The notes under the pieces were generated by a model. The model worked only from the letters and a program-made list of their open reading frames with translations. It was not told the DNA's origin and searched no databases. Source: an uncultured Rhodospirillales bacterium (GTDB lineage: Bacteria > Pseudomonadota > Alphaproteobacteria > Bin95). From it: a stretch of DNA of 29,031 nucleotides. Below, piece after piece: positions 2,335 to 29,029 of the stretch. The position numbers were made by a program, and so were the translations under genes. Numbering within the stretch: the stretch's first letter is position 1; each line of letters starts with the position of its first letter. Where the stretch lies: NCBI GenBank assembly GCA_964474065.1, contig CAYYSC010000002.1, forward strand, positions 1 to 29,031, read 5' to 3'.

Positions 2335-2411
2335 CGGAGCGTAGCGCAGCTTGGTAGCGCGCCAGCATGGGGAGCTGGAGGTCGTGGGTTCAAATCCCGC
2401 CGCTCCGACCA
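2335..2411 (+). tRNA. tRNA-Pro, anticodon GGG
   Basis: 77 nt; acceptor CGGAGCG/CGCTCCG, D arm GCGC..GCGC, anticodon stem CCAGC/GCTGG with loop ATGGGGA, T loop TTCAAAT, encoded ACCA end. Confidence 0.97.
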
Positions 2412-4387: not shown

Positions 4388-7300
4388 AGGCGGCGCTCAT
4401 CCTCGCGTTCAGTGTATGGGTGGCCTCGGTCTCGCCCGCTTTTGCCCAGCTATCCTTGCTGGGGCTTAAGAACAACCTCATCCAGTTTGTGCTCGGCCAG
4501 ATCAGTGTGCCGGGAGAGTTCGAAATCACCGTCGAAAAGGTAGAAGAGCCGGGCGACGGGGCGACCGACCTGGTAGGCGTGAAGGTTGCCGATAGCGAGG
4601 GAGTCTGGCTGACGATCAGACGCGTTTCGCTGAAGTGGCGACCGCTTCGGCTTGTGACGGGCAAAATCCATATCACCGACCTCACCACTACGGAGGTGAG
4701 GGTGCACCGATTGCCGAGACCTGCCGGGCCGGCGGAGGAGCCGCCAGAGGAAGAAGGGGATGGCGAGATTGCTTGGCCGCGATCGCCGATATCGGTCCGC
4801 CTGGACAATCTGGTCTTGAACCAAGTCGAGATTGCGGAGGACGTCATTGATGGGCAAGCCGTGTCATTTGATGCAGCCGGGTCCTTTCGGGACGAAGGGA
4901 ATGTGCAGTCTGCTGCGTTGACGCTGGAACGCACGGACAAGGTAGACGCCACTGTCCAATTGGCCTTTGAGCGGCAGTTCGAGGCGGATCGGTTGCGCTT
5001 CGATCTGAAGGCGGAGGAAGGACCCGGCGGCTTGGTGGCGTCTCTTGCTAACCTGCCGCCCGACGCGGGAGCGAGTGTCAGAATCTTCGGCAGCGGTCCG
5101 ATTGAGGACTGGCAGGCCGACCTGGATGCGCTGGTTGAACAGCGGTTGCAGGCTAACGGAAAGATCGTGGTCCGTTCGGTTCAACCTTTATCCCTGACCA
5201 CTGCCCTGCGTGTTCAGTCTGAAGGCGAGCTTCGCCAAACGATAGAGCCGGTTCTGGGCCCTACGCTCAATCTTGACGCTGACGCGGTGGTCGAGACGGA
5301 AGGATTGATTACGTTACAGCAACTGCAAATCCGCGGGGAAAATGCCGAAGTATCGGCTCAGGGCACCTTCGACACCAATACCCAGGAAATGGACGCCGAG
5401 GCACAGGCCACGATAGTGGCGGTGGGCGAGCCATTCCTCCCCGGCGCGAGGGTCCAGAACATTGGCTTCGAGGGGCGTGTTTCGGGCACTCCGAATTCTC
5501 TGACAGCCGACGGCAGGATCACTCTGGCAGAAGTGGCTGCCGATGCCCTGCAGGCCACCGGCGTGAGCCTGAATGGAGAGGTTGCCGTGGCAGGGGAAAC
5601 GATCCGGTTCGACCTTTCCGGGCAGAGCGAGACCCTGACGGCAGACAAGCTGGACCTTCACCAAGGCGGCGTGCTCCGCTTCGGCGGGGAGGGAGAAATG
5701 GCCGCCGGCGTCCTGACGCTCCAAACCTTTTCCGTTACGTCGCCACTGCTCAGTGTCGAGGCGGACGGCCAAGTTTTTTTGGATGAAGGCCGGCTGGACT
5801 TGCTGTACCGCGCGGACGTGCTGGAACTGACACCGGTTGCGGCGGCCTATGGTGCCGCCGCTGCCGGGACGCTGACGGGCCAAGGCACCGTTGCCGGGCC
5901 GTTTGACGCGCTGGCAGTGTCGGGCGGTCTGTCGTTAGCCGGCCTGTCATGGCAGGAACAGGAAATCGGCAATCTTGAACTGAACCATGATGCCACCATC
6001 GCGGAGACCATTGCCGCAGCCCTGGATCTGACGCTCCGCGATTCTCCTTACGGTCCCGCCATGGTCGCGACGGAATTGGCCCTCGCAGGCAACCAGCTGG
6101 AACTGAGGTCGCTGGAAGCCAGTGCACTCGGCGTCGATGCAGAGAGCATCGAACCGCTTACCGTGGACCTAGATACCATGCTGGCGTCCGGAAAGCTGGA
6201 ATGGCAGGCGCCCGATCTCTCCCAAGCCGGCAACGCCCTGGGCACGCCTTTGCAAGGGAAGGCGAGCGGCAGCGCTGCCCTCGTTCGGGCAAACGGCCAG
6301 CAGGATATAATCCTCGCGGTGAACGGCGCCAACCTGGCGGCGGGCGATGCTCGGGTGCAGCGTGTGACGCTCGATGCGTCCCTGAGCGATGTCCTGGCTG
6401 AGATGCCAAAGGTACAGGCGCGATTACGGGCGACGCAGGTGGCGGCGGGTGGCGCGACCCTTACCGAAACGACAGCCCGCGCCGAGGGGGCGTTATCGTC
6501 CCTGCAGCTAACCCTGCAGACAGAGGGGGAGGCGTCGGATGGTGAGCCTGTGGCGGCGGAGACCGCCATGACGGCCGATCTCTCCGCTGCGCCACAGCGG
6601 ATCACGGTCTCGAAGCTGAGCGCCAACTATGCCGATCAGGAGGCGCGTCTAGCCCAGCCTGCCGTGATCGAGGTGCAAGAATCCGGCACTTTCATCCGGG
6701 ACCTGAATCTCCGGACACTGGGCGGCAGCGTGGCCGGAAACGTGGCCATGCTCCCGGCTTCGCTCCAGGGGGACCTGCAGGTCGATTTTCCAGACCTGGA
6801 GCCACTTGCGCGGTTGGCTGACCTGCCGGTGAGGGAAGGGAGCCTCAACGTGAGCGCCGAGTTCGACACGGCGCAGTCGGCCAACTGGCGGTTCGAGGTC
6901 GCCGGGCTCCGCCTCGCCGAAATCGATAGCGGCGAACGGGAGTTCGCCATCAGCCTGCTGGGAGGCTGGAACGGACGCGAAGTCGGGCTGCAGGCGCAGA
7001 TGGCCGGCGACTTCGGCATGCCAGCGACTGCCGAGATCAGCTTTCCGCTTCGGCCCGGTCCCGGATTGGTTCCCACCCCGGCACCGGGTGCTCCGCTTAA
7101 CGGCTTTGTGCGCTGGTCAGGCGACATCCAGCGGGTTTGGGCGCTCGTGCCCGCTCCCGACCATTATGTCCGAGGCGAGGCGGACGTTGATCTCGATATC
7201 GGCGGAACTATCGCGGAACCGGCTTTGGCCGGCCGGGCAAACGTCAACGATGGCCGGTATGAGTTCCTGGAAACGGGTACCATCCTGACCGATCTCAGGA

Positions 7301-24589: not shown

Positions 24590-24666
24590 GAGCTAAGCGC
24601 TTCTCTGGGGTGAAAGGGAGCATTATGGTGAGGGGATCTTCCGCCGTAGGCACCGATCCCACCCCA

Positions 24667-25449
24667 ATGCTCGCTACCTTAACCCAAATCTTTGGGGACT
24701 TGCAGCCGTCGACCCTGGTCTTTATCGGGCTCGGCGCGTTTTTTTCCGCCATGTTCCACAGCGTCGCCGGATTCGCAGGCGGCCTGATTCTGTCCGTTCT
24801 TCTTGCGCCGGTTATTGGCATCAAGGCCGTGGTCCCGGTGATCGCCGTTTCCCTGCTGGTAAGCCACACGAGCCGTGTCTGGGCCTTCCGCAAAGGCTTC
24901 CGATGGCCAATCTACCGCGATGTGATGACCACCGCCTTTCCCTGCATCATCCTGGGCGCGGCGATTTATGCCTATCTCCCGGTCAACGCGGTGGCGCTGT
25001 TGCTGGGCTTGTTTCTGGTTGGCACCGTGCCGTTGCGGCGGCTGATGAAGCGCTACAACTATCAGGTTGGAAAGCGCTCGCTGATGGGCGTAGGCGTGCC
25101 GTTCGGAGTGTTGAGCGGATCCACCGTGGGCGCTGGAATGATCCTGGCGCCGTTCATGCTGGCAGTCGGATTGGCGGGCGAGGCGCTGATGGGCACCATG
25201 GCCGCCGTAGCGCTGACCGTGAACGTGACCAAGGCGGTAGTGTTCGGTGGCTTTGCCGTGCTGGACAGCGGGTTGGCGCTGGCCGGTTTTCTGGTCGGGC
25301 TTTGTACCGTACCCGGCAACCTCAGTGGCCGCTGGATCGTACGCAACACGCCTATTCGCGTGCATGTTATGGTTGTGGAAAGTGTGGTGATGGCCGGCGG
25401 TCTCTATTTTCTCTACGCGGCGGGTGAAGGATGGAACTGGTGGGGATGA
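24667..25449 (+). CDS. TSUP (TauE/SafE) family membrane transporter; start uncertain (24610 possible)
   Basis: About 8 hydrophobic segments; AGFAGGLILSVLL..V.G.K.VVP and GVLSGSTVGAG..LAPF repeats typical of TSUP. Confidence 0.85.
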   Translation: MLATLTQIFGDLQPSTLVFIGLGAFFSAMFHSVAGFAGGLILSVLLAPVIGIKAVVPVIAVSLLVSHTSRVWAFRKGFRWPIYRDVMTTAFPCIILGAAIYAYLPVNAVALLLGLFLVGTVPLRRLMKRYNYQVGKRSLMGVGVPFGVLSGSTVGAGMILAPFMLAVGLAGEALMGTMAAVALTVNVTKAVVFGGFAVLDSGLALAGFLVGLCTVPGNLSGRWIVRNTPIRVHVMVVESVVMAGGLYFLYAAGEGWNWWG

Positions 25450-25517
25450 CCGCGTCGCTTGGACCGCGTAACTTGGATTGCATCGGCTGGGAACTGAACC
25501 GGAAGACATGGGTAGGC

Positions 25518-25546
25518 TTGACAAAGCGCCGCACTGCGACAATTAT
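25518..25546 (+). promoter_or_regulatory. Putative sigma70 promoter with no long ORF downstream
   Basis: Perfect TTGACA (25518-25523)-N17-AATTAT (25541-25546); predicted start about 25552-25553, exactly where the first helix begins. Confidence 0.6.
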
Positions 25547-25631
25547 GCCAGTGAAGGCATCGTCTGGCTCGGGGTCCAGGAACGCTTCAACCAGACCTAG
25601 CCTTCAGCGCACGCAATCCGGCTTGCGCTGA

Positions 25632-25882
25632 CGGAACCAGGAGGGTGTGTTAAACATGACTCCACCCGGTTACAAGAACCCGCTGCGCTGAACGCGAGAC
25701 ATCGTGCTTGCCCGGGTCGCGCCGATGCATCCGGCGAGGCATTGACCTTGAAATCGGTTCCGCAACCAGGAGGATGCGATTGCGCATGACCCTACCCGAT
25801 TGCCAGAACCTGCCCCGTTGAACAAACGGGGCAGGGCGCAACATGGCCGCGGACGCACATCCTAGCGGAAATTTGCGCCTGA
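25632..25882 (+). repeat. Diverged ~130-nt tandem duplication, each unit with AACCAGGAGG plus an 11-codon ORF
   Basis: AACCAGGAGG at 25635 and 25764; ORFs 25656-25691 and 25786-25821 share 27/36 nt; weaker similarity continues (GATGCATCC 25724 vs GACGCACATCC 25852). Confidence 0.75.
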
Positions 25883-25968
25883 TCCCAAAAACATGCGTAA
25901 TACGGGCTGCCCGCTAATCGGGTAGGCATTGGCTTGCGGAGCACCGCAAGCAGACCGGAACGGTCAAC

Positions 25969-26006
25969 GAAAACCCCGCGCGCCAGAAGGGCCGCGGGGT
26001 TGTTCT
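25969..26006. terminator. Probable bidirectional intrinsic terminator
   Basis: 9-bp stem AACCCCGCG (25972-25980) / CGCGGGGTT (25993-26001); stem ends in a TTTT run on the minus strand (tauD side) and in TTGTTCTT on the plus strand. Confidence 0.65.
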
Positions 26007-26035
26007 TGGGACGAAAAGAGCCGCTAATAAGCCAT

Positions 26036-27112
26036 CTAGACGGCTTCCAGCGGCGCATTCATCATGGTGCCAGAGACAATGATGCCGCCGCGGTCGCCGA
26101 TATCGATCTTCCCGTAGCGTTCCGCATAGACCGGCGGCAGCGGCCGGGCCTCCGGGGCAGCCAGCCATAGGCGCAGCAGGTGGCGCTTTTTCTCAGGCTC
26201 CGGCCAGTCAATGAAGGCGGTGCGGTCATGCAGCAGGGTATGATTGTGCACCCATTGCATGTCGCCCCGCTGGAAGTCCATGTTCAGGTGTAATGCTGGG
26301 TCGTTGGCCAGATCATCGAACAGGTCGAGTGCACTCTTCTGCTTTTCGGTGAGCGGCGGCACGCCTTCCAAACGCCGTGCACTCTCAATGTAACGCCGCG
26401 CGTAAATGGCGGATAGGCGGCCCTCGTAGTAGTTGAACACCGGTATCTCGAAGTATGGGAGCTTGCCTTCCGGGATCTCGCCGCGGCGGTCCGTGGCGAA
26501 AGGCTGGAACAGTTCCCAGAGCAGATCCGGCGCGCGTTTGTACATCTCGTTATAGATGGTCATCGTGCTGACGATCGACGACTTGCCGCCTTCTTTCGCC
26601 GTTTTCAGGCAGAGCAGGGCGACGATATCGCAGCTGTCGGTGTGATAAGTCTGCCGCTCGGTCGTCTGGTAGATCCGGACCTTTGGATCCTCGGTGGAAA
26701 GCCCCAGGTCCTTGACATGGCCCAACACGTGCCCCTTGGCGTTTTGCGAACGCGCATTGCCGAAATAGGTGCCGACGCCGAAATAGGCGATCGCGCTCTC
26801 GCGCATGGAGTAGCGGTCAACCGGCAGGCCGCGCATCAGCGCGAACCCGCGGCCGTTGAGAACGTCGCTGCACAGATCCTTCAGCTTTGGGCCGAGCGTC
26901 GGCAGGGGGAAATCCGCCTGGGTGATCCGGGCGATGTCCGCTTCCCGGGCCACCAGGGGTGCGATGGCTGCATCGATTTCCGCAATGTCGCTTTCGGTGA
27001 GCTGGTAGACCCATTCGTCCGAATTGGCGAGATCTGGCCCGTACCAGGCACTCGGTCCGGCGATCGGCTCCGGCAATTCCGCCGGAATGATATAACTGAG
27101 GCCGTCAGGCAT
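26036..27112 (-). CDS. TauD/TfdA-family Fe(II)/2-oxoglutarate dioxygenase, copy 1
   Basis: Facial triad YHTD...NHTLLHDR, 2-OG arginine in RHLLRLWL; AGGGA RBS; 358 aa. Confidence 0.9.
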   Translation of the reverse strand: MPDGLSYIIPAELPEPIAGPSAWYGPDLANSDEWVYQLTESDIAEIDAAIAPLVAREADIARITQADFPLPTLGPKLKDLCSDVLNGRGFALMRGLPVDRYSMRESAIAYFGVGTYFGNARSQNAKGHVLGHVKDLGLSTEDPKVRIYQTTERQTYHTDSCDIVALLCLKTAKEGGKSSIVSTMTIYNEMYKRAPDLLWELFQPFATDRRGEIPEGKLPYFEIPVFNYYEGRLSAIYARRYIESARRLEGVPPLTEKQKSALDLFDDLANDPALHLNMDFQRGDMQWVHNHTLLHDRTAFIDWPEPEKKRHLLRLWLAAPEARPLPPVYAERYGKIDIGDRGGIIVSGTMMNAPLEAV

Positions 27113-27127
27113 GGTGCGCGTTTCCCT

Positions 27128-28204
27128 TTATGCGTCGGCTTCGAGGGGGGCGTTCAGGGGCACGCCCGGCACCTTGATGCCATCGGGACGCCCACCCTTG
27201 GTCTTGCCTTGATGCTCTCCGGTGTAGCTTTCTGGCAAAGTCGGCCCATCGTCGCACGCCAGCCAAAGGCGCAGCAAATGGCGCCGCTTCTCCGGCTCCT
27301 CGTAGTCCTCGTAGGCGGTGCGGGAGTGGGCGACAGCGTGGTTGCTCACCAGTTGGATGTCGCCCGGTTCGAACGCCATATCGAGATGCAGTGCCGGGTC
27401 GTTCGCCAACTCGTCGAACAGGTCCATTGCCTCGTTCTGCTCTGGCGTTACGCGCGGCACCACATCCATCAACTGCGCCTTCCGCACGGCGCTGCGCACA
27501 TAGGTGCAGATCACGCGTCCGTCGCAGAGATTGAACGGTGCCGTTCCGTAATAGGGTTTGCGACCTTCCGGCACCTCGCCCCAACGCGTGCGGTAGACGG
27601 GCTGGGTCAGAACCGCCGCCAGGTCAGGGCGGCGCTTCACCATCTCGTTGTAGATCGTCGTCGTGGAGACAAGCGACGACAGGCCACCCGATTTGCTCTT
27701 CTTCAGGCACAGCAGGGCGACGGTGTCGGAACTGTCCGTGTGATAGGGCAGGCGCGCGCTGGTCTGGTAGCCGCGGGCGAGGGGGTCGTTGTAATCGAGG
27801 CCAAGGTCTTTCACGTGCCCCAGCACGTGGCCCTTTCCGTTCTGGCTTACGGGTTCGCCCCAATAGGCGCCAATACCCCAGAAAATGCGGGCAGCTTCCG
27901 CGACGTCGTAGCGCTCGATCGGCAGCCCGCGCAGCAGGAAGAAGCCGCGGCCATGCAGCACTTCGCGGCAGATACCGGTGAGGCGAGGGCCCAGCGTCGG
28001 CAGCGGGAAGTCATCCCGGCCAATGCCCAGGATTTCCTTGCTCCGCACGCGCTCAAGCGCTGCCTGCACTTCGCCAATCTCGGCTTCGTTCAAGGTATGG
28101 ATCCAGTCAGTGCGCTTGGCTTGATCGGGACCGGACCAAGCTTGCGGCCCATTAATCAGCGGCAAATCAGTGCCGGCGGACATCACGGTATCAGGCATTT
28201 TCAT
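27128..28204 (-). CDS. TauD/TfdA-family Fe(II)/2-oxoglutarate dioxygenase, copy 2
   Basis: YHTD...NHAVAHSR, RHLLRLWL; start ATG 28204 puts the GPxAW tryptophan at residue 23 in both paralogues and gives 358 aa. Confidence 0.9.
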   Translation of the reverse strand: MKMPDTVMSAGTDLPLINGPQAWSGPDQAKRTDWIHTLNEAEIGEVQAALERVRSKEILGIGRDDFPLPTLGPRLTGICREVLHGRGFFLLRGLPIERYDVAEAARIFWGIGAYWGEPVSQNGKGHVLGHVKDLGLDYNDPLARGYQTSARLPYHTDSSDTVALLCLKKSKSGGLSSLVSTTTIYNEMVKRRPDLAAVLTQPVYRTRWGEVPEGRKPYYGTAPFNLCDGRVICTYVRSAVRKAQLMDVVPRVTPEQNEAMDLFDELANDPALHLDMAFEPGDIQLVSNHAVAHSRTAYEDYEEPEKRRHLLRLWLACDDGPTLPESYTGEHQGKTKGGRPDGIKVPGVPLNAPLEADA

Positions 28205-28270
28205 GCTCACTATCGGTTTTCGGCTGCGCGTTTGCAGCGGACTTGCACACAATCTAATCCGAAATGCTTC

Positions 28271-29029
28271 CTAAGAGAACCGCCGGATGGCTTCTTTGCT
28301 CAGCGACTGTCGCAGGTCGTCGTATCCCTCCCACGGGTCGTTCTGAAGGTGGGCCAGCCGCTGACCGATGTTTTTGATGGTGTAACACGCTGCGTCCGCA
28401 ATTCCGGAAAGCTCCTCCCAGGAAACCGGCGTCGCTATCGGCGCGCCTTTTCGTGCCCGCGGCGAAAAAGGGGCGATGGCAGTCGAACCGCGCTCGTTAC
28501 GCAGGTAATCAATGAAAATCTTACCGGCGCGCTTTTCTTTGGACGCAGTGGCGATGTAGCGCTCGGGGTTCAATTTCACCATGGTCTTGGCAAGGCCGGA
28601 AGCGAAATCCTTTACATCACCCCACGAGGAGCGCCGTACGATAGGAGTGATGACATGAATGCCCTTGCCGCCCGTTAACATGGCAAAACTCTCTAGCTGG
28701 GCCTCCTCTCTCAGCCTGTCGCGTAAGGCAAAGGCGGTGTCGCGGATCTCGGCGAAGTCGAGTCCCTCATCCGGATCGATGTCGAAGATGAGACGCTCCG
28801 GCCGTTCCGGCTGGTCGGCGCGTGCCGACCAGATGTGCAACTCCAGCGCACCAATTTGTGCCGCCGCCACGAGGCCGGATGCATCGTTCGCCAGAATATA
28901 CGGGGCCTTTGTTCCATCCTTTTCCTCAATCGTGACCGTGGCCAGGGCATCCGGAATGCCCTTGGTGTGGTGCTTTTGAGCACCTCGGTCGACGACGTAG
29001 ATCGTGCCGTTTGGATTAAGGGCCGCAGA
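28271..29029 (-). CDS. ligD: LigD polymerase (AEP primase-polymerase) domain; frame open to the window edge, with a non-LigD peptide upstream of 28978
   Basis: QIGALELHIW, LIFDIDPD (motif I), TGGKGIH (motif II), IFIDYLRN (motif III), PFSPRAR.GAP.ATP.SWEEL, DPW.GY; no stop between 29029 and 28274. Confidence 0.85.
   Translation of the reverse strand, partial: SAALNPNGTIYVVDRGAQKHHTKGIPDALATVTIEEKDGTKAPYILANDASGLVAAAQIGALELHIWSARADQPERPERLIFDIDPDEGLDFAEIRDTAFALRDRLREEAQLESFAMLTGGKGIHVITPIVRRSSWGDVKDFASGLAKTMVKLNPERYIATASKEKRAGKIFIDYLRNERGSTAIAPFSPRARKGAPIATPVSWEELSGIADAACYTIKNIGQRLAHLQNDPWEGYDDLRQSLSKEAIRRFS

Follow-up and report, generated by a model that had tools for sequence, protein, structure and literature searches.

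RNAIII of Staphylococcus aureus, the RNA that carries hld, is about 500 nt long. Like SgrS/SgrT and Spot 42/SpfP, it is an independent multi-hairpin RNA that combines a small open reading frame (ORF) with regulation at the RNA level (PMC12612679). In Sinorhizobium meliloti, the dual-function small RNA (sRNA) rnTrpL is derived from an attenuator and encodes the 14-aa leader peptide peTrpL (PMC6614838, PMC7298713, PMC12612679), which acts in trans (PMC7298713). Here we describe a locus in a stretch of 29,031 nucleotides from an uncultured Rhodospirillales bacterium (GenBank assembly GCA_964474065.1, contig CAYYSC010000002.1, positions 1 to 29,031 of the forward strand; referred to below as the window). 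A gap between two convergent genes of this stretch very probably holds a real structured RNA gene of an uncatalogued family, as judged from its fold and from its homologues. The core of this RNA consists of two paralogous mini-cistron modules, which were overlooked in an earlier note on the same DNA. In kind, the RNA is most like the dual-function sRNAs, but it is a member of none of the systems with which we have compared it.

The likeness to rnTrpL lies in the features of the latter as an alphaproteobacterial transcript with an intrinsic terminator, a very short translated ORF and action at the RNA level, in which translation of the ORF is tied to the fate of the RNA. However, rnTrpL has a length of about 110-140 nt, contains a single ORF rich in Trp codons and is an attenuator upstream of trpE(G), whereas the RNA described here would be about 455-530 nt long and has two paralogous ORFs, its own promoter, no co-oriented downstream gene and no sequence or Rfam similarity to rnTrpL. 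The ORFs of RNAIII, SgrS and Spot 42 encode 15-43 residues that are conserved over their full length, and no homology to these RNAs was found. In contrast, only five N-terminal residues are conserved here, there are two ORFs, and a hairpin sequestering the Shine-Dalgarno (SD) sequence is located at each initiation region. The feature expected of a dual-function sRNA, a discrete small transcript with its own promoter and terminator, is present at the sequence level only.

The two modules form a tandem direct repeat with a spacing of 130 nt in the window, each copy consisting of AACCAGGAGG, an interval of 11-12 nt, an ATG and an 11-codon ORF. The earlier note had called the region a gene-free gap. 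It is indeed a gap between convergent genes, but one that holds this repeat, with an AGGAGG, an ATG and an 11-codon ORF in either copy. Homologues were found in six lineages of uncultured Alphaproteobacteria, the window included. Among the resulting 12 modules (two in each lineage), GGAGG is present in 12/12 and AGGAGG in 9/12, 11 modules start with AUG and one with GUG, and the distance from the SD to the start is 11-12 nt. The ordinary genes of the window do not usually have a perfect AGGAGG upstream. The spacing between the modules varies from 129 to 139 nt across homologues and is not consistently a multiple of 3. The mini-ORFs have 7-15 codons, and their conservation is limited to the first five residues (MTPPA/G and MTLPD), the tails being variable. 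The peptides of ORF1 in the homologues read MTPPASFE, MTPPAQQN, MTPPAYYL, MTPPAYYG and, from a GTG start, (V)TSPAYYL; those of ORF2 read MTLPDYQKGA, MTLPDYK, MTLPDYC, MILPDGQKRAVPKGI and MTLPDVS.

In the homologues, both SDs are contained in hairpins formed with the codons that follow them. In module 1, GGAG (25640-43) pairs with CUCC of codons 2-3 (25660-63), and GUGU (25645-48) pairs with ACAU (25654-57), a strand that takes in the A and the U of the start codon. This hairpin (helix 4) is paired in 100% of the alignment cells, and its sole variation is from G-C to G-U and from U-A to U-G; the window has a local dG of -7.4 kcal/mol for it, and the homologues range from -3.1 to -7.0 kcal/mol. 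In module 2 of the homologues, GGAGGGUGC pairs with GCA....CCUUCC of codons 2-4 (helices 7 and 8), with a dG of -9.7 to -11.1 kcal/mol, the range over all sequences being -8.3 to -11.1 kcal/mol. The SD2 hairpin of the window has lost two pairs (now A-A and A-C), and only SD1 is clearly paired with its own codons there. Taken together, helices 4, 7 and 8 pair in 96-100% of cells, and the pairing probability of the SDs in single-sequence ensembles is 0.6-1.0. The ends of the ORFs are also close to helices: the third base of the ORF1 stop codon makes the first pair of the next hairpin (helix 5) in five lineages, and ORF2 ends inside or just before hairpin Hf. Considering that the SD and AUG of these mini-ORF modules are the most conserved parts of the RNA, it may be partly coding rather than purely noncoding.

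The structure was evaluated on eight sequences aligned by MAFFT alone, with no fitting to structure. RNAalifold returned 92 pairs, 40 of them with compensatory changes, and after removal of one spurious helix 88 pairs were counted. Over these 88 pairs, 92.1% of 700 cells can pair, compared to 39-45% after a shift of the 3' partners by 1-3 columns, and double changes are found in 36/88 pairs, compared to 10-15 in the shifted controls. None of 500 column shuffles reached any of the five measures used. Homologues with compensatory changes, on which the earlier note had made its proposal depend, thus exist across six lineages. The alignment also identifies the strand. There are 103 G-U paired cells, and reading the same columns as the minus strand lowers the pairing from 92% to 79%, which indicates that the plus strand is the functional one.

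Single-sequence folding is in agreement with the comparative result. The minimum free energy (MFE) of 25545-26006 on the plus strand is -206.6 kcal/mol, against -175.2 ± 6.2 kcal/mol for dinucleotide shuffles (z = -5.1; 0/100 shuffles as good), and two homologues have z values of -6.2 and -2.8. Since these homologues, with 49-52% G+C, still fold well, the structure is no by-product of the 61% G+C of the window. The minus strand folds likewise well (z = -4.7), so energy alone cannot pick the strand. A minus-strand RNA exposing anti-SD CCUCC loops was considered and, despite this z value, rejected on the G-U content. The region contains two perfect inverted repeats of 11 bp, and such a repeat is found in 2.8% of mononucleotide shuffles. 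All nine helices listed in the earlier note (arms in Table 1) proved to be perfect reverse complements.

The window was compared with the 4227 covariance models of Rfam 15, the gathering threshold of each family being used as criterion. At the gathering score the only match in the window is a tRNA at 2335-2408. At E <= 10, the gap yields nothing meaningful, a single chance match of 12.8 bits against a gathering score of 60, and the homologues L012 and L003 gave sub-threshold matches only, mostly over the terminator hairpin. The proposal of the earlier note, a novel structured RNA, has therefore stood on each count that could be checked from sequence, with no Rfam match for the window or two homologues, a fold better than that of dinucleotide shuffles in both, and compensatory changes in its relatives.

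The promoter is conserved as well. TTGACA-N17-AATTAT (25518-25546), already pointed out in the earlier note, is the sole sigma-70-like site in 25300-26200, with 10/12 matches and a shuffle average of 0.2. TTGACA is kept in all six lineages, and the -10 of the homologues is CAAAAT or CAAAGT at a spacing of 16 nt. An EcfG-type promoter (GGAAC..CGTT) upstream was rejected on direct reading, its spacing being unsuitable. From these motifs we infer transcription, with a start at about 25553. The homologous units in the five other lineages measure 488-532 nt, and the predicted RNAs overall 456-532 nt. On the plus strand, a GC-rich hairpin followed by a U-run closes every copy in all six lineages, and it was called by the terminator scan in L012 and L024. 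The corresponding terminator of the window, which the earlier note had placed at 25972-26001, was not called by the scan because its stem has an internal 2x2 mismatch; the hairpin and TTGTTCTT are nevertheless legible in the sequence. Double changes are found in 4/12 pairs of this hairpin (helix 13).

The helices differ in how widely they are shared. The 5'-terminal stem-loop folds in each homologue, with sequences that are barely alignable, and the comparative support for this helix 1 is weak (78% paired). The long-range helix Hb reads GAAACC/GGUUUC in the homologues; in the window G-C replaces A-U, which is one compensatory change. Hb is present in the MFE fold of 4/6 lineages and closes a multi-branch domain enclosing all of module 1. 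It should be mentioned that L025 and L026 (Logan assemblies, about 4598-4605) have GGCGTCCG where L024 and L034 have GGTTTCCG, which breaks two Hb pairs; this change may come from an error of assembly or else indicate that Hb is dispensable. Between the modules, helices 5 and 6 have double changes in 2/6 and 11/13 pairs, the latter being the long hairpin. In Hf (helix 9), 5/9 pairs change on both sides, and the loop in the homologues is GAAA or GAAG. Support is best for Ha, the long inter-module hairpin, Hf and the terminator. The 3' third is mutually conserved in the five non-window lineages (UGGCAGAAGGC...GCCGAGGNAGCCAAGAGGAGCCC) and different in the window. Of the layout given in the earlier note, the 5' helices Ha and Hb as well as Hf are thus shared, but the 11-bp long-range helix and the helices at 25835-79, 25932-51 and 25953-65 have no alignable counterpart. 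For the 11-bp helix (25791-801/25916-26), none was seen by eye in the 3' domains of the homologues, no systematic search having been made. The absence of counterparts to the 3' helices of the window implies that the shared structure consists of the 5' two-thirds plus the terminator.

In the 3' domain of the five non-window lineages (e.g. L012:4640-4700, L016, L024, L034), there is a third run resembling an SD (AAGAGGAG), together with a hairpin that covaries and, immediately ahead of the terminator, AAUGACCUAU. The AUG found there opens an ORF that is not conserved and has 2 to >24 codons. The segment is complementary to the 3' arm of Hf, without covariation.

The homologues were collected by way of neighbouring genes. 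A genome-contig scan with the TauE protein gave nine loci in metagenome-assembled genomes of uncultured Alphaproteobacteria, of which only L001 and L003 carry the RNA. Twelve contig look-ups via a zinc alcohol dehydrogenase (Zn-ADH) and an adenylosuccinate-lyase (ASL)-family neighbour added L012-L014, L016, L024-L026 and L034, and seven look-ups led to paralogous contexts or contexts without the RNA. Another contig, L010 (JGI Ga0102940_1030603), is from the window organism and equals window 24928-27499 with 5 mismatches in 2572 nt; the sole mismatch inside the RNA, C25879T, converts G25835-C25879 to G-U and retains the pairing. In the usual context, pyrE, TauE, optional inserts and Zn-ADH are followed by the RNA, which faces a convergent ASL-family gene. 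The ADH and ASL genes are absent from the window, where the RNA is located between TauE and a TauD-like gene. The position of the RNA is syntenic and single-copy: nhmmer and regular-expression scans found no second copy in the 29-kb window or in about 250 kb of fetched loci, whole genomes being outside this search. A strict two-module pattern (24 specified bases), scanned against one metagenome collection, matched only L010 and an unrelated repeat array (L011), and divergent relatives would be missed by design with a pattern this strict. The L011 match, a chance one, lies in a soil-metagenome contig (7230-7500), in a tandem array of palindromic units of about 45 nt (CCCCTCCCC..CGCAAGGGGGAGGGAG-A6-TCATGA) just past a gene end. 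This array belongs to an unrelated repeat family, each unit of which also has an SD-like run followed by ATG.

As judged from these loci, the RNA family is real but narrow and patchy. The RNA is missing beside the two closest TauE relatives (L002, L009) and beside ASL relatives of 75-85% identity (L027-L033), and in L033 its locus is occupied by a 73-aa ORF. Such patchiness could be expected of a non-functional sequence, that is, a remnant left by the decay of gene starts, a repeat or a mobile element, in which GC-rich palindromes fold well by chance. However, a remnant would not account for compensatory changes across six lineages or for a conserved promoter and terminator. Nor does it fit with a sequence that is single-copy in the window, has no match in plasmid and phage collections (blastn, word size 11) and contains no long ORF that keeps its frame across the homologues. 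We disfavour this explanation and find it scarcely credible. A REP/RIME-type or mobile repeat was rejected, with no second copy in the window or the fetched loci and no plasmid or phage match.

At L033 (4348-4700, minus strand), the 73-aa ORF has no Pfam match, and the ASL-like protein is 85% identical to that of L001. The upstream sequence GTGATCCAAATTA resembles the spacer and -10 of the L003 RNA promoter, which suggests that the RNA was replaced behind a remnant of the same promoter. In L015 and L017-L023, a Zn-ADH 86-88% identical to the RNA-adjacent one lies in an RNA-free context (SDR, ADH, TauD). The Zn-ADH gene is thus duplicated within the clade, and ADH protein identity alone does not predict the presence of the RNA.

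Table 1. Features of the RNA locus and its flanking genes (window coordinates); helix arms are given as 5' arm/3' arm.
Feature	Position	Strand	Remarks
TauE/SafE-family membrane-protein gene	24610-25449	+	upstream of gap
Gap	25450-26035		between two convergent genes
-35 box TTGACA	25518-25523	+	motif scan; identical throughout the 8 aligned homologues; also called in L012 and L024
-10-like hexamer AATTAT	25541-25546	+	17-nt spacer
Predicted primary transcript, about 455 nt	25553-26008	+	bounded by promoter and terminator motifs
5'-terminal stem-loop, TGAAGGC/GCCTTCA enclosing GTCTGG/CCAGAC	25552-25606	+	arms 25552-58/25600-06 and 25562-67/25591-96; perfect complements; in MFE fold
Hairpin Ha, CAGCGCA/TGCGCTG	25605-25630	+	arms 25605-11/25624-30; helix 2: 7/9 pairs change both sides, 96% of cells pair
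Long-range helix Hb, 5' strand CGGAACC	25632-25638	+	arms 25632-38/25756-62; directly upstream of SD1
Module 1 initiation hairpin	25639-25663	+	SD1 AGGAGG at 25639-44
Mini-ORF1, MTPPGYKNPLR and stop	25656-25691	+	putative; 11 codons
Inter-module region	25692-25755	+	window aligns poorly; in homologues, hairpin from third base of ORF1 stop plus long hairpin
Long-range helix Hb, 3' strand GGTTCCG	25756-25762	+	pairs with 25632-25638
SD2 AGGAGG	25768-25773	+	
Mini-ORF2, MTLPDCQNLPR and stop	25786-25821	+	putative; 11 codons
Window-specific 11-bp long-range helix, 5' arm	25791-25801	+	arms 25791-801/25916-26; covers mini-ORF2 codons 2-5
Hairpin Hf, 11 bp	25809-25835	+	arms 25809-19/25825-35; overlaps end of mini-ORF2; stop TGA at loop edge
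Window-specific hairpin domain, GGCGCAA/TTGCGCC	25835-25879	+	arms 25835-41/25873-79; perfect complement
Window-specific 11-bp long-range helix, 3' arm	25916-25926	+	perfect complement of 25791-25801
Two 3' hairpins, GCTTGCGG/CCGCAAGC and GACCG/CGGTC	25932-25965	+	arms 25932-39/25944-51 and 25953-57/25961-65; perfect complements
Intrinsic terminator, CCCCGCG...CGCGGGG then TTGTTCTT	25972-26008	+	read directly; helix 13
TauD-family dioxygenase gene	26036-27112	-	converges on gap

An SD, a start codon and an anti-SD strand in one hairpin are the hallmark of a regulated initiation region, and here the combination is found twice on a free-standing RNA. The most economical reading is accordingly that of a translation-coupled riboregulator, and we tentatively take a plus-strand, dual-function RNA of about 455 nt with this property to be the best explanation of the sequence data overall. 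The RNA is ordered as a 5' stem-loop, Ha, Hb closing a multi-branch domain, the two mini-cistron modules and the intrinsic terminator. In the mechanism that we propose, ribosomes would melt the initiation hairpins, of which that of module 1 is weak (-3 to -7 kcal/mol) and that of module 2 stronger (-8 to -11 kcal/mol), and, while on the few codons of each ORF, may unzip the post-ORF hairpins at or next to the stop codons. How the remaining RNA folds, how stable it is or how accessible would then depend on the frequency of initiation or on the dwell of the ribosome at the codons of the conserved pentapeptide, and this RNA would act in trans on a putative target. This switch model in full is a possibility that we advance with some doubt.

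A partial parallel is provided by the nascent-peptide leader ORFs (cat-86 with MVKTD..., cmlA, ermCL, ermDL), which are very short, depend on their first residues, have a strong SD and let the ribosome disturb downstream pairing. These leaders are located directly upstream of the resistance gene whose SD they unmask. In contrast, no such gene is present here, SD2 lies about 100 nt past ORF1 and there is no known inducer, and the resemblance is one of functional speculation.

The case for translation is built on a few features of the modules. Each has a canonical SD and a start codon, and in one module AUG is exchanged for GUG. Over the first 12 nt that follow the start codon in the two modules, 5/8 wobble columns vary against 3/16 of the others (one-sided Fisher p = 0.047). 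In the window, CUU has become CUA, by which Leu is kept and a pair of the SD2 hairpin is broken. Several invariant nucleotides are unpaired in the consensus. These are the G and A of AUGA, the Asp codon GAU and, after the hairpin, CC-N-G. From these signals, we judge the chance that at least one mini-ORF is translated to be slightly better than even. A long ORF on either strand was rejected: translated similarity is spread over several frames, the frame switches between lineages, and the module spacing varies (129-139 nt).

If both mini-ORFs were translated, the locus could also be a small bicistronic mRNA, whose two micropeptides (TPPA... and TLPD... after removal of Met) would be the functional products, for example as a signal, as a modulator of an enzyme or membrane protein or as a substrate for modification, with the RNA structure serving stability or translational control only. 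The conservation of the SD, the start codon and five N-terminal residues and the wobble-biased variation would be consistent with such an mRNA. Precedents are the trans action of the 14-aa peTrpL (PMC7298713) and the observation in Sinorhizobium meliloti that a third of 54 newly detected translated small ORFs (sORFs) lie on annotated sRNAs (PMC10117765). However, only five residues are kept while the C-termini and lengths are free, which would be unusual if the peptide were to fold or to be recognised specifically. Neither a modifying enzyme nor an exporter is conserved next to the RNA, whose neighbours are TauD-like in the window and Zn-ADH and an ASL-family lyase in the others, and about 85% of the transcript is outside the ORFs yet structurally constrained. 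We regard a micropeptide mRNA as improbable. A microcin C-type mccA, which encodes a heptapeptide ending in Asn beside MccB, a ThiF-like adenylyltransferase, was also considered; no ThiF-family gene is found among the neighbours. The C-terminal residues of the mini-ORFs are R, E, N, L, G and L for ORF1 and R, A, K, C, I and S for ORF2.

The combination of mini-ORFs, hairpins and a terminator resembles ribosome-dependent attenuators, and SD-sequestering hairpins of -3 to -11 kcal/mol could melt with temperature. Both properties would suit a cis element of a neighbouring gene, be it a leader or attenuator, an RNA thermometer, a long 3' untranslated region (UTR) of the upstream gene or an antisense read-through into the convergent gene. 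The gene order does not support this. The next gene is convergent in all six lineages, and no co-oriented gene or operon follows the terminator in the window, L001, L003, L012, L016, L024 or L034. The identity of this gene varies (TauD-like or ASL-family), as does that of the upstream gene (TauE or Zn-ADH), and the RNA has a conserved -35 box of its own. Regulatory codons are not enriched in MTPPxxxx/MTLPDxx, where no residue recurs beyond the Pro at positions 3-4, and no Rfam leader or thermometer was matched. An attenuator-like pairing of the 3' arm of Hf with the distal AUGACCUAU just upstream of the terminator could form but was not retained, as it shows no double changes and no overlap with the terminator stem. 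In RNA thermometers of the ROSE and fourU types, the SD of a heat-shock or virulence gene is paired, within the 5' UTR, to a strand that is U-rich or reads UYGCU. Here, the anti-SD strands are CUCC and CCUUCC inside the mini-ORFs, no protein gene follows downstream, and no Rfam thermometer matched above noise. A cis element is very improbable.

A number of observations weigh against the translation-coupled riboregulator itself. The wobble test is marginal and includes six lineages only. The distance between SD and AUG (11-12 nt) exceeds the optimum, and for the most part the SDs are paired (P 0.6-1.0). The change from AUG to GUG keeps the U-A pair as U-G, and CCA/CCG and the change from CCN to UCA keep or wobble the pairs with the SD strand. 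The C-rich codons 2-4 may simply be the anti-SD strand, and each coding-like signal has an explanation at the RNA level. No function is obvious for peptides of 7-15 residues whose tails vary. There is also no co-oriented downstream gene in the six lineages on which a leader-type mechanism could act, and no conserved alternative pairing with covariation was found, the pairing of Hf with the distal AUGACCUAU being without double changes. Finally, the 3' domain of the window is unlike that of the other lineages, so conservation would not extend to a trans-acting seed in that domain, and a single-stranded seed conserved across all six lineages cannot be defined.

Several of these points would be accounted for by a purely noncoding structured RNA, in which the SD and AUG hairpins are untranslated motifs. 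They could bind, or act as a decoy for, a translational repressor, 30S subunits (in the manner of an SD-type stabiliser) or a small RNA with an anti-SD sequence, and the mini-ORFs would be a by-product of a C-rich anti-SD strand downstream of an AUG-containing stem. Both SDs are indeed in conserved hairpins (96-100% of cells; P(paired) 0.6-1.0), the spacing to the AUG is suboptimal, ORFs of 7-15 codons have unconserved tails, and selection on structure is clear in the remainder of the RNA. With the exception of the CUA of the window, all substitutions in codons 1-4 are compatible with pairing. The CUA codon, which breaks a pair yet retains Leu, does not fit the noncoding explanation, and the consensus pairing leaves unexplained why the unpaired G and A of AUGA, GAU for Asp and CC-N-G after the hairpin are invariant. 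Moreover, no candidate protein partner is conserved nearby, and GGA motifs are not enriched. We consider a purely noncoding RNA rather unlikely, and retain the translation-coupled riboregulator as the tentative first choice.

Some known noncoding systems were compared in this connection. STAB-SD of Bacillus thuringiensis cryIIIA and the bar minigenes of phage lambda are cases in which a strong SD or a 2-codon minigene has ribosome binding itself as its role. However, those elements are unstructured, single and located within mRNAs or phage transcripts, whereas the SDs described here are in conserved hairpins of a covarying multi-domain RNA. A sponge of the CsrB/RsmZ type was rejected, since each RNA has 8-10 GGA, where shuffles lead one to expect 9.5-11.6, and the GGA of both SDs are in stems. 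The alphaproteobacterial anti-SD sRNAs (alpha-r14 / cuckoo / CcsR, with CCUCCUCCC loops) were rejected as well; Rfam gave no match to them, and CCCUCCUGG is present only on the minus strand, the structure being on the plus strand.

Other features of the window were recorded along with the RNA. A 14-nt tandem direct repeat at 25448-25475 (GACCGCGTCGCTTG / GACCGCGTAACTTG) is located upstream of the RNA promoter and overlaps the end of the TauE stop codon (25447-25449). Downstream of the RNA there is a tandem pair of TauD/TfdA-family dioxygenase paralogues (26036-28252, minus strand). The 199-aa ORF after this pair (28271-28870, minus strand) matches the LigD primase-polymerase profile at positions 78-254 only and, because of this partial match, is probably a truncated or mis-started gene. 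The tRNA gene at 2335-2408 (plus strand; Rfam 64.7 bits) has the anticodon loop AUGGGGA, read directly as anticodon GGG (Pro).

To our knowledge, bacterial RNAs of more than 400 nt that have covariation-backed multi-domain folds and belong to no family are uncommon, and several earlier ones had unusual biochemistry. The present family is known from only six lineages of uncultured Alphaproteobacteria. Within the categories of a genome-wide survey of noncoding RNAs, it would be filed as an sRNA or sORF candidate (PMC11109978). The twist is that its best-conserved elements are two complete initiation regions locked in hairpins, in an RNA that neither contains an ORF of protein size nor has a gene to regulate in cis. 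We can also imagine a class of ribosome-sensing RNAs, in which the pentapeptide mini-cistrons MTPPA/G and MTLPD would be checkpoints of initiation or early elongation that switch an RNA of about 450 nt. The checkpoints might respond, for example, to EF-P or the supply of proline, to temperature or to a ribosome-directed small molecule, and translational status would be converted to a trans-acting RNA signal without a downstream gene; we think this distinctly unlikely. If the mini-ORFs are untranslated, the RNA would be a candidate decoy for a factor that binds ribosome-binding sites. If they are translated, they would be among the shortest conserved bacterial cistrons (7-15 codons), reaching below the 10-aa lower bound of the sORFs in a Ribo-seq survey (PMC10117765), and the RNA would be a test case for translation as the input of an sRNA.

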